Shown here piece after piece: positions 3,375 to 57,128 of a stretch of DNA of 64,000 nucleotides (position 1 is its first letter; every line of letters begins with the position of its first letter). This stretch comes from a virus (lineage: Duplodnaviria > Caudoviricetes): positions 1 to 64,000 of IMG/VR virus record IMGVR_UViG_3300011890_000001. One strand, 5' to 3'. A program made the translations under genes and the position numbers. The notes beneath the pieces were generated by a model that was given only the letters and a program-made list of their open reading frames with translations, was not told where the DNA came from and made no database searches.

Positions 3375-5342
3375 ATGGGCACTGTTCGTAAATACACCGC
3401 TCGTGACCTTGCGACCATGCCGCGGGATAGTCTCTGGGCTATCCCCGACGGCCGCATTGAGATCGTATTCGATGACGGGAGTTTGGAGTCTTCGGTACGT
3501 GAAGCAATCTTTTCGGCCTACACTTGGGGGTATTGCAACTATTTCCCTGAGGCGCCGCTGTTTAAGCGCCATCACATCAACGGTCGGGTGATGAACCCGA
3601 CCCTTCACCTGCGCATGATGGAGGCCACGTTCTGGGATACCTACGACGCCTACGGCGGGGAGTTGGACCACGAACGTATGGCGGAGCTCACCATCGAAAT
3701 GATCGGTGAGCTTTACAGTGACATGATCCGACACACGGACGCATATGTGACCTCGCTGTCGATGGACGACATCAACGAGGTCATGTGTCATCCGGCCATC
3801 AAGGAGGCCAACGACAAGGTAATGGAGTCGGCTTCCGACTTGAGCATTGCTCGGGCCTACGACACCATCGAGTCAGTACTGATGAGGTCGCCCGAAATGG
3901 ACGACAACATGTTGGCACGTATGTGCCGCAGTAATCTGATCAAGATGGGCCAGGTCAAACAGTGCGTGGGTCCACGCGGTCCGGTAACGGAAATTGACTC
4001 CACGTTGTTCCGATACCCGAGTCGTGAAGGTTTCGTGGGTGGCCTGTACAGCATCTACAACAGCCTGATCGAATCGCGCACCGCGTCCAAGTCGCTTTCG
4101 TTCACCGAAAAGCCGCTGCAGGAAACGGAGTACTTCAACCGTAAACTGCAGCTGCTGGCCGGCGTGATTCATTCTGTCTACGACGGTGACTGCGGTACGA
4201 CGTCTTACGCAAAGTGGTTCTTCCGACCCGGCCATGAGAAATTCCTGGCCGGTAAGTACTACCTGGACGAGGAGACCAATACGCTTCAGAAGATCACCAG
4301 CGCTTCCCGAATGTCGCTGTCTGGTAAAGAGATCCTGCTGCGTTCTCCGGGTCACTGCGCCACAACCGATTCGCAGTATGTCTGTTCGACGTGCTACGGC
4401 GAGATGGCGTTGAGTATCCAGCGCGGTACGAACATCGGTCACGTTGCCGCAACTGCCCTGTGTAAGCAGGCATCGCAGCAGGTGCTGTCCGTCAAGCACT
4501 TGGACTCCAGTACTTCTAACCCAGGGTTGATTCTGGGTGAGGCTGAAGAACGCTACATTCGCGTCGGTATGGATCCCAACGAGATCTTCTTCGTACCGGC
4601 CCTACGTGACTGTAAGATCGAGCTGGTGGTGCGTGCGACCGAAGTAGAGCGCCTGATCGACATCAATCGCGCCACTGGCGTGGAAATGCTGATGCCGACA
4701 CAGATCTCCAACCTTACGGAAATGGCCCTGCGCATCACTCGTCCCGACGGCCGTGTCTTGCCGCCGGATCTGGTGATGATCTCCAATGGTAGTCGGCGCA
4801 GTTCGTTCTCGCGTCCGATGCTGGCCTACCTGCAGAAGAAGGGCTGGCAGCTGGACAAGGCCGGTGACATCGTCATCAATCTGGATGAGTGGGATCACGA
4901 CGAGCCCATTCTGGTCACCCCGCGTCGTCAGGAGAACATGCTTGACTACATGAAGGTGATCGAAAAGTTCCTGAAGGCCGGCAAGCGTTCTGCAAAGAAC
5001 ACGAGCACCGATAAGTCCCTGCGTGACTACGAGGACTTTGACGGCGGCCTGTATGGGTTCTACGAGCTGGTGTCGTCTCGCCTGTCCGTGAACCTGGTAC
5101 ATCTGGAACTGCTCATCAAGTCGTGTCTGATCCGGTCGTCTAAGCATCGCGACTACCGAGTCCCACTGTTGGGTAACAAGTTCGAGGTGGGTCGCTTCGA
5201 TAGCAATATCTTCAATCGAAGTAACGGCAACGCCATGGCATTTGAGCATCATCGCTCGATGTGGGCTAACCCGGCGTCCTACCTGAATCTGTTCCGTCAG
5301 TCAACGCCGCTGGATGAAATCCTGCTGCCGTCCAAGGAGTAA
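3375..5342 (+). CDS. non-virion RNA polymerase beta' subunit, C-terminal part (phiKZ gp74-like)
   Basis: Beta' motifs QCVGPRG, ESRTASKSL...ETEYFNRKL, DCGT, LRSP..C, VCSTCYG, GHVAA....QQVLSVKH; GAGGAG RBS; directly follows the beta gene. Confidence 0.92.
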   Translation: MGTVRKYTARDLATMPRDSLWAIPDGRIEIVFDDGSLESSVREAIFSAYTWGYCNYFPEAPLFKRHHINGRVMNPTLHLRMMEATFWDTYDAYGGELDHERMAELTIEMIGELYSDMIRHTDAYVTSLSMDDINEVMCHPAIKEANDKVMESASDLSIARAYDTIESVLMRSPEMDDNMLARMCRSNLIKMGQVKQCVGPRGPVTEIDSTLFRYPSREGFVGGLYSIYNSLIESRTASKSLSFTEKPLQETEYFNRKLQLLAGVIHSVYDGDCGTTSYAKWFFRPGHEKFLAGKYYLDEETNTLQKITSASRMSLSGKEILLRSPGHCATTDSQYVCSTCYGEMALSIQRGTNIGHVAATALCKQASQQVLSVKHLDSSTSNPGLILGEAEERYIRVGMDPNEIFFVPALRDCKIELVVRATEVERLIDINRATGVEMLMPTQISNLTEMALRITRPDGRVLPPDLVMISNGSRRSSFSRPMLAYLQKKGWQLDKAGDIVINLDEWDHDEPILVTPRRQENMLDYMKVIEKFLKAGKRSAKNTSTDKSLRDYEDFDGGLYGFYELVSSRLSVNLVHLELLIKSCLIRSSKHRDYRVPLLGNKFEVGRFDSNIFNRSNGNAMAFEHHRSMWANPASYLNLFRQSTPLDEILLPSKE

Positions 5343-36263: not shown

Positions 36264-36302
36264 GCATGCGGAGGGGGCCACAGGCCCCCTCCGCTTATGC
36301 CG
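36264..36302 (+). terminator. intrinsic terminator
   Basis: GCGGAGGGGGCC-ACA-GGCCCCCTCCGC-TTATGCCG. Confidence 0.85.
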
Positions 36303-36329
36303 CTTTTCACATCGTATTTTCTTTTGATG

Positions 36330-36520
36330 GGAATAACCTAGGTTGTAGAACCACCCAGTGCCGCTACATTGCTCAAAGTGCGGGTTGGTTCTACTCTGCC
36401 GGATCTACTCGAATACTTTGGGGAAAGGAGCCATTCGTCTAGATCCATACCTACCAACTTTGTTGACTTGGCCGCTTTAATGGGGAAACCAATTTGAATT
36501 AGGCAAGATCAAACGAAGGA
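36330..36520 (+). promoter_or_regulatory. structured 5' leader / candidate cis-regulatory RNA
   Basis: Nested stems TAGGT/ACCTA, GTAGAACCA/TGGTTCTAC, GGATCTA/TAGATCC, CGAAT/ATTCG, plus a third hairpin reaching the RBS. Confidence 0.5.
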
Positions 36521-36527
36521 ATTATTT

Positions 36528-36947
36528 ATGCGTCAATTTTTCTCCCACAACAAGAATACCCCCCTGCCTTTGCGTATCACGGTCGAAGAGCCGATGGCTC
36601 GAACGATCGCGCCGCACCACTACACCATCGACGGTTTCGATACCTCCAACAATCGAGCCGCTAGGGCAAGTGGATTTATCCCCAGGCACCGGGAGACGGT
36701 ACTCATTTTTGAAGATGAAGACAATCCGTTTAAGACACCTACCGGTGTTACGGTTGATGCCGTCCTGGCGGTCTTGATCGATCATTTGGATGCCAAGCAA
36801 GGAATGAGTGTAAGACGCTTTAGCCCAGGCTGGCGCGCCTTGGAGCTGTTGCGCGAAGCTCGTGACCTCCTCGATGAAGCCGGCGGAGCGCCGGCCGGGT
36901 TTGACTTTGAGAACCTGAGTCGCGGTAGAAGGAATTCCGCTTTTTAA
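36528..36947 (+). CDS. divergent Tad1-like (Thoeris anti-defence 1 fold) protein
   Basis: APHHYTI...VLIF...TGVTVDAVLAVLIDHL...ALELLREA matches the recalled Tad1 pattern (GA.H.Y.I...I.FQ.G...GV....LL.IV.DRL...AL..VEEA); AAGGA RBS. Confidence 0.55.
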   Translation: MRQFFSHNKNTPLPLRITVEEPMARTIAPHHYTIDGFDTSNNRAARASGFIPRHRETVLIFEDEDNPFKTPTGVTVDAVLAVLIDHLDAKQGMSVRRFSPGWRALELLREARDLLDEAGGAPAGFDFENLSRGRRNSAF

Positions 36948-36949
36948 TC

Positions 36950-36995
36950 CATAACTGGCCTCCCAGACCACTGAGGTCTGGGAGGTTTATGCCGC
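36950..36995 (+). terminator. intrinsic terminator
   Basis: CCTCCCAGACC-ACTGA-GGTCTGGGAGG-TTTATGCCG. Confidence 0.85.
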
Positions 36996-37014
36996 TATTT
37001 GGAAAACGTGTGGA

Positions 37015-37101
37015 TTTAAAAAAATCTCGCAACCATATAGTCGTTGTGAGCAAGAGCAGTAATGTTCTTTGAGCTCATTAAACTCTTTTGTCAAACAAGG
37101 A
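37015..37101 (+). promoter_or_regulatory. early-type promoter, leader hairpin and TGTCAAACAAGGA box
   Basis: AAAATCTCGCAACCATATAGTCGTTGTGAGCAAGAGCAGTAATG is nearly identical to 59112-59155. Confidence 0.75.
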
Positions 37102-37110
37102 AATAGTACC

Positions 37111-57100: not shown

Positions 57101-57128
57101 TAAGGAGGTAACCATGTCTACAATTTAG
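57101..57128 (+). promoter_or_regulatory. perfect SD plus four-codon mini-ORF (MSTI*)
   Basis: TAAGGAGGT at 57101-57109; ATG TCT ACA ATT TAG at 57114-57128. Confidence 0.5.

Follow-up and report, generated by a model that had tools for sequence, protein, structure and literature searches.

The window analyzed here, 64 kb long, forms the beginning of a viral contig of 269 kb. Among named phages, RTH11 and LucasX, jumbo phages of Xanthomonas, are its closest relatives. Within the window, a gap of 287 nt between a gene for a 724-aa protein and one for a 139-aa protein houses a structured leader (Table 1). The neighboring genes, as seen in their close relatives, encode phiKZ internal-protein and head-tail domains. 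The terminator-like hairpin at the end of the 724-aa gene was not called by a simple terminator scan, and its tail contains a TATG sequence (36296-99) resembling the late promoters of phiKZ, for which a TATG consensus has been described (PMC4666361). The small open reading frames of the gap (58, 40, and 42 aa) do not remain open in the homologous locus L005. Two observations concern the surroundings of the leader. The coding sequence of the downstream gene has a stable hairpin (window 36600-36640, about codons 17 to 28) in three of the four close homologs. Beyond that gene, window 36990-37110 contains an early-promoter-like motif, which RTH11 and LucasX also have at the equivalent position; between it and the ribosome-binding site (RBS) lies a GTCAAAC hairpin. 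The end of the leader's last hairpin carries the similar GATCAAAC, but outside any GTCAAAC-type hairpin.

Table 1. Features of the leader and its immediate surroundings, in window coordinates
Feature	Coordinates	Strand	Basis and remarks
Terminator-like hairpin, end of upstream 724-aa gene (internal-head-protein cluster)	36264..36300	+	Fold and coordinates; LucasX has an annotated terminator at the equivalent position
T-rich box, putative middle-promoter element, -26 to -17 of predicted start	36319..36328	+	Matrix score
H1, 5'-terminal hairpin from predicted +1 G, with variable interior	36345..36394	+	Pair probability ~1; 2 compensatory pairs, 100% of cells paired
H2, covarying hairpin displaying the invariant apex	36401..36446	+	4 double-change pairs, 87.5% of cells paired
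H2 apex, 20 nt, with distal GGGG 36420-23 (position -108); candidate recognition site	36410..36429	+	20/20 columns invariant
C-rich linker joining H2 and H3, single stranded	36447..36457	+	8/11 columns invariant; distant orthologs have a similar C-rich stretch near a G-run
H3, bulged, G-U-containing; predicted to pair the first four Shine-Dalgarno bases; proximal GGGG 36482-85 (position -46) at tip	36458..36518	+	14/15 pairs invariant
Shine-Dalgarno (SD) sequence GAAGGA	36515..36520	+	Sequence; invariant in homologs
139-aa Tad1-fold protein without the tested ligand-binding residues	36528..36947	+	Profile, Foldseek, residue map
Terminator-like hairpin, putative end of the predicted single-gene transcript	36951..36991	+	Sequence

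An earlier note on this DNA had read the gap as a three-way junction followed by a further imperfect hairpin running into the RBS. All of the segments that it named are present where it placed them, and the two helices within the proposed junction, of 9 bp (36345-53/36386-94) and 7 bp (36401-07/36440-46), are predicted with pair probabilities of about 1.0. The junction itself did not survive: its closing helix (36339-43/36449-53) is weak (0.22 to 0.26), is missing from both the MFE and the centroid structures, does not covary, and has its 5' strand upstream of the predicted transcription start. The fold of the leader is one of three hairpins in series (H1, H2, and H3). The imperfect hairpin at the RBS, our H3, is real and nearly invariant, its few changes falling mostly at bulged or loop positions. 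Compared with dinucleotide shuffles, folding gives z = -2.3 for the stretch originally noted, z = -2.75 for 36345-36527, and values from -1.0 to -3.4 in three homologs. The sequence TGGGGAAA, said to occur twice, indeed has exactly two plus-strand copies in the window, both within the leader; the second reads TGGGGATC in two homologs, and the part kept is only the G-run plus an A. A pseudoknot between the G-run of H2 and the C-rich linker, compatible with all four sequences, was discarded because a 3-nt link cannot bridge a 14-bp stem.

Covariation in related phages had been proposed as a check, and H1 and H2 show it. An alignment of the window with L005, L058, and L059, variants that were recovered via the protein (87 to 99% identical), contains six compensatory pairs, all of them in H1 (two) and H2 (four); one further contig variant is L058's own contig and was counted once. 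In this alignment 93.9% of the cells are paired, against about 40% in slid-partner controls. The covariation score is attained by 1 of 500 shuffles, a figure that is not a probability, as the four related sequences form two pairs and are too few and too closely related for formal significance. The discarded closing helix has no double changes and three broken cells (in L005 and L059), and the CTTT/AAAG stem at the tip of H2 never varies, hence giving no covariation signal either way. As a neutral yardstick, half of the gene's fourfold synonymous sites (27 of 54) are invariant, versus every column of the H2 apex; 19 of the 20 columns in the 3' arm of H3, including the SD, are likewise unchanged. 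Because of these double changes, and because the invariance stands against a neutral level of 50%, the comparison of the aligned sequences indicates that selection maintains pairing in the stems of H1 and H2 and sequence in the apex and in H3, whose near invariance leaves no room for a covariation signal. Both lines of evidence contradict chance folding, and equally the idea that the leader is a decayed remnant of an upstream Tad1-like paralog. Such a paralog (114 to 144 aa and more divergent) does lie between the promoter and this gene in most relatives, the window's phage and L063 being without it, but comparison with five of them by translation gave a best E value of 0.04 on the coding strand, which is not convincing. 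We regard these two explanations as scarcely credible and largely refuted.

In all four close homologs, H3 is predicted to pair four SD bases, leaving the SD unpaired with a probability of about 0.2 to 0.3 (70 to 80% paired). RNA thermometers of the ROSE type are series of hairpins, of which the last is bulged over the SD, and the leader, with its stable 5' hairpins and bulged SD hairpin, has the same layout. Further, both copies of AAGGA, one in the SD and one at the apex of H2, are invariant in the four homologs, as control by a host CsrA/RsmA protein at GGA loops would have it. Nevertheless, little melting is predicted: the SD is unpaired with a probability of 0.22 to 0.34 over 20 to 55°C in three homologs and of 0.05 to 0.33 in the window. 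The gene is not a heat shock gene, and no match to ROSE was obtained in Rfam at E values up to 10. As for CsrA, the distant orthologs mostly have GGGGC rather than GGA, and no phage csrA was found. Thermal or CsrA-type control is, on these grounds, very improbable.

The syntenic leaders of nine relatives have in common a box rich in A and T (-26 to -17) and, at the foot of a hairpin, the sequence T|GTGGA or T|GTAGA. A start-site matrix trained solely on these syntenic sites has its best score within the intergenic gap at G36345, which ranks 18th on the plus strand of the 269 kb. The top hits of the matrix are intergenic in 20 of 45 cases, against 12.7% expected (p = 1.5e-7), and several of them read T|GTAGA. 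The phiKZ middle-promoter motif, centered near -24, resembles that of the leader (PMC4666361), and the T-rich box with T|RTAGA, recurring genome-wide, is likely to be a middle promoter of the window's phage. We infer that G36345 is the +1 position, which would make H1 5' terminal and place the TAGGT strand of the earlier junction outside the transcript; a longer transcript, originating at the TATG noted above or by read-through, is conceivable. Copies of this promoter-like motif (T|RTAGA preceded, at -26 to -17, by the T-rich box) lie at G000 positions 254837(+), 201332(-), 128456(+), 96551(+), 79129(+), and 70969(+) and at window positions 57121(-) and 44402(+). At G000:254837-255035 lies another multi-hairpin leader of about 200 nt, which opens with the same GTAGAAC at its predicted start. 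A 5' helix shared with the 720-nt RNA at G000:70969 was considered and rejected: only 8 + 10 nt are common, and the local alignment score equals that of shuffles. The 5' strand of the helix consists of the start-site motif that recurs throughout the genome, and common descent of H1 and the helix of that RNA is therefore not needed.

No terminator, sought as a hairpin with a U-tract, was found between H3 and the start codon. Since, in addition, H3 pairs with the SD and a terminator-like hairpin follows the gene, the evidence favors the 5' untranslated region (UTR) of a single-gene mRNA, of about 183 nt. The earlier note had offered a cis-regulatory RNA or a separate small RNA (sRNA). What stands is a conserved structured RNA, most likely cis acting, with its last hairpin reaching into the RBS; the separate sRNA is less likely because of the missing terminator and the overlap of H3 with the SD. 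As a 5'-UTR-derived or separate species, H1 and H2 or all three hairpins could act in trans, for instance as a protein decoy or antisense RNA. Its own predicted promoter and paired 5' end, as in the 720-nt RNA, would suit this, and there is precedent in the eight 5'-UTR-derived sRNAs reported for phage 201phi2-1 (PMC11512511). A conserved sRNA is also described upstream of phiKZ gp182/201phi2-1 gp277 (PMC11512511). Compared by description, it resembles the leader in being conserved, structured, and situated in the 5' UTR of a gene from a phiKZ-like phage, and it differs in preceding another gene (for a tail protein) and in ending by premature termination. Apart from the two points above, a trans role is opposed by G-runs held at a fixed distance from the start codon (see below) and by the apex complement, which was not found elsewhere in a search confined to the phage genome at up to 2 mismatches. 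We therefore consider an sRNA improbable.

The downstream gene, previously described as Tad1-like, encodes a protein that neither Pfam nor PHROGs recognizes; nevertheless, profile searches and Foldseek uphold the Tad1 fold. The family profile matches phiKZ gp184 (E = 4e-20), which is the Tad1 of phiKZ (10.1101/2025.11.23.690004), and CbTad1 (E = 5e-13), and a predicted model (pLDDT 76) retrieves CmTad1/CbTad1 in Foldseek at E values of 4e-4 to 1e-3. This is the sole Tad1-like gene found in the genome, which is about 90% complete. The protein has the fold and the N-terminal to midprotein motifs in common with CbTad1, CmTad1 (PDB codes 7UAV and 8KBB-8KBH), and gp184 (8Y6V), but the C-terminal lid motif is gone, as is the ~100-aa N-terminal part of gp184. 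Mutation of F82, N92, R109, and R113 (gcADPR, dinucleotides) or of R90 and T97 (trinucleotides) lowers binding by CbTad1 (10.1101/2023.11.15.567273). All six residues are replaced here (aligned K90, G101, A118, P122, F98, and E106, the R90 and N92 columns being uncertain by one position), and nearly all six are also replaced clade-wide, where an Arg-containing loop, R-x-x-G-F-x-P-R, is conserved. As judged from the alignment, the known pockets are gone; a different ligand is possible, since sponge families change specificity (10.1101/2025.08.24.671296). Several related loci deserve mention. Tandem Tad1-fold paralogs, annotated as hypothetical and both without the canonical pocket residues, occur at L001:3542-3916 plus 4001-4432 and L002:3532-3957 plus 4001-4441 and are present in RTH11, LucasX, and most relatives. 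Burkholderia phage FLC9 gp131 (L003:2338-3354) is an apparent fusion of a canonical Tad1 to a cyclophilin-like domain, the latter read from sequence. At L068:2285-3326, in a more distantly related jumbo phage, lie two Tad1-like genes in tandem; their form is midway between the canonical and the degenerate one, and one pocket arginine is kept.

The leader is a real, conserved, and previously uncatalogued structured RNA. Rfam yielded no match in the window at the gathering threshold and only chance-level ones at E values up to 10, and none for nine related loci. Nothing was recovered by blastn of the leader against GenBank phages; scans with the apex motif (viral and metagenome contigs) and with the distant-clade motif gave chance matches only, none beside a Tad1-like gene, and one pattern match, L053, proved to be bacterial DNA. 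In the literature, as far as our incomplete coverage goes, we found neither a leader RNA on a tad1 or acb2 gene nor such a riboswitch in a jumbo phage. The suggestion in the earlier note that the leader senses an immune nucleotide is unsupported: it is weakened by the loss of the six tested ligand residues, which in CbTad1 serve gcADPR and cyclic di- and trinucleotides, and by the lack of an Rfam riboswitch match. More generally, SD-occluding translational riboswitches include the three-way-junction purine and c-di-GMP classes, and aptamers usually conserve both sequence and fold over distances such as those considered here. The leader resembles this group in its location in a 5' UTR (given the predicted start), with structure over the SD, and in its invariant, unpaired, purine-rich segment 5' of the SD-covering hairpin. 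The H2 apex might thus lie in the pocket for a small molecule, possibly a guanine-containing or immune nucleotide, with H3 as the expression platform, and the descent of the gene from a nucleotide sponge would be in keeping with this. Pairing of the apex with codons 4 to 7, with the linker over the AUG, gives an alternative fold near in energy (-4.7 to +6.8 kcal/mol from the main fold in the four homologs), and it is a guess that this could provide a switch by burying the AUG. However, synonymous recodings form this fold at least as well, and it lacks covariation in distant relatives (p = 0.70). The leader also has no multihelix junction, its sequence and fold are not kept beyond close relatives, and the known pockets are no longer present in the protein. 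A riboswitch is hence quite improbable.

A different kind of conservation emerged from 11 distant orthologs (33 to 46% protein identity). GGGG occurs 38 to 52 nt before the start codon in all 11 of their leaders and in all 4 close ones, as opposed to 1 of 51 neighboring genes and 30 of the 256 genes of the window's genome. Eight of the 11 have a second G-run, at -98 to -116 (window's runs, -46 and -108), and the arrangement of both runs is found before only this gene among the 256. The position windows were first picked after the data had been seen; L065 and L070, checked once the prediction had been stated, both fit. G-run leaders are absent before canonical Tad1 genes (L004, L043, L069, and phiKZ gp184), and the more distant homolog L068 has a single G-run at -75. 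Between the G-runs, four distant orthologs have a covarying hairpin of their own (5 double changes). In RTH11-like phages (L001:3876-4003, L060:1830-1957, L062:2876-3003, and L064:2003-2130), this distinct covarying element before the orthologous gene consists of a G5 run, a CGCAA-loop hairpin, a G4 run, and a C-rich tail; it extends over the last part of the reading frame of the upstream paralog and is retained even where it falls beyond the stop codon. A covariance model (R1) recovered its four input sequences only and nothing in the whole genomes of five relatives or elsewhere in this genome, a hidden Markov model of the 11 distant leaders fails to detect the window's leader, and this gene comes only 15th of 256 when scored with a matrix built from the G-box (G-run flanks) of the distant leaders. 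At the level of sequence, then, what is shared with the distant leaders is the G-runs and not the whole fold, and the link rests on G-run position. The window's leader looks like the promoter and its 5' hairpin joined directly to the gene-proximal element, which accompanies this gene whether or not the paralog is transcribed first, as expected for a cis element.

These G-runs also bear on a passive leader, in which the hairpins would not switch but would shield the mRNA and hold translation at a low, constant level (or have a part in export or packaging). In its favor, the leaders of all nine syntenic relatives open with a 5' hairpin of unrelated sequence, and a second conformation is without support. 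Yet stems would suffice for protection, which calls neither for a 20-nt apex that is invariant nor for G-runs that are specific to the gene and retained at 33 to 46% protein identity. A purely passive role is a serious though unlikely alternative.

Our preferred reading, to which we tentatively assign a probability of about 0.45, is that the leader serves translational control and is read by a protein, possibly the product of its own gene. It fits best because the marks are short, gene specific, and displayed in loops, the stems are variable, and the SD is half closed. Leaders controlled by proteins are exemplified by those of T4 gene 32 and regA, autoregulated ribosomal-protein genes, and mRNAs bound by CsrA/RsmA. 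They likewise display short conserved marks in loops near the RBS of one particular gene on stems that are free to vary; they differ in that the mark in our distant relatives is a G-run rather than ANGGA, and there is no common sequence or family match. Under the protein-read scheme, transcription from the middle-type promoter would yield the 5' UTR, with H1 pairing the first bases and so shielding the 5' end, while H3 would keep the SD half closed in vivo and damp translation by default. H2 would be a scaffold, its stem free to vary and its G-rich apex fixed. The apex and the G-run at the tip of H3 would together form the recognition site of a putative trans-acting protein that would shift H3 and so set translation. 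A candidate is the gene's own product, which appears to have lost its nucleotide pockets in a clade that gained the conserved Arg-rich loop. Taken further, a Tad1 sponge of this clade of nucleus-forming jumbo phages may have been repurposed as an RNA-binding regulator that reads the G-run loops of its own leader (or the leader itself may respond to a nucleotide signal). The anti-defense gene would then be under signal-linked feedback. We offer this extended version as a speculative and rather improbable one.

Posttranscriptional control of phage anti-defense genes is little described. If the leader were merely protective, it would be one more uncatalogued phage 5' UTR. The system is compact and testable, consisting of a 183-nt leader and a 139-aa protein, with RTH11 and LucasX available as cultured relatives, and it presents a gene-specific RNA mark retained across a clade in which the sponge has lost its known pockets.
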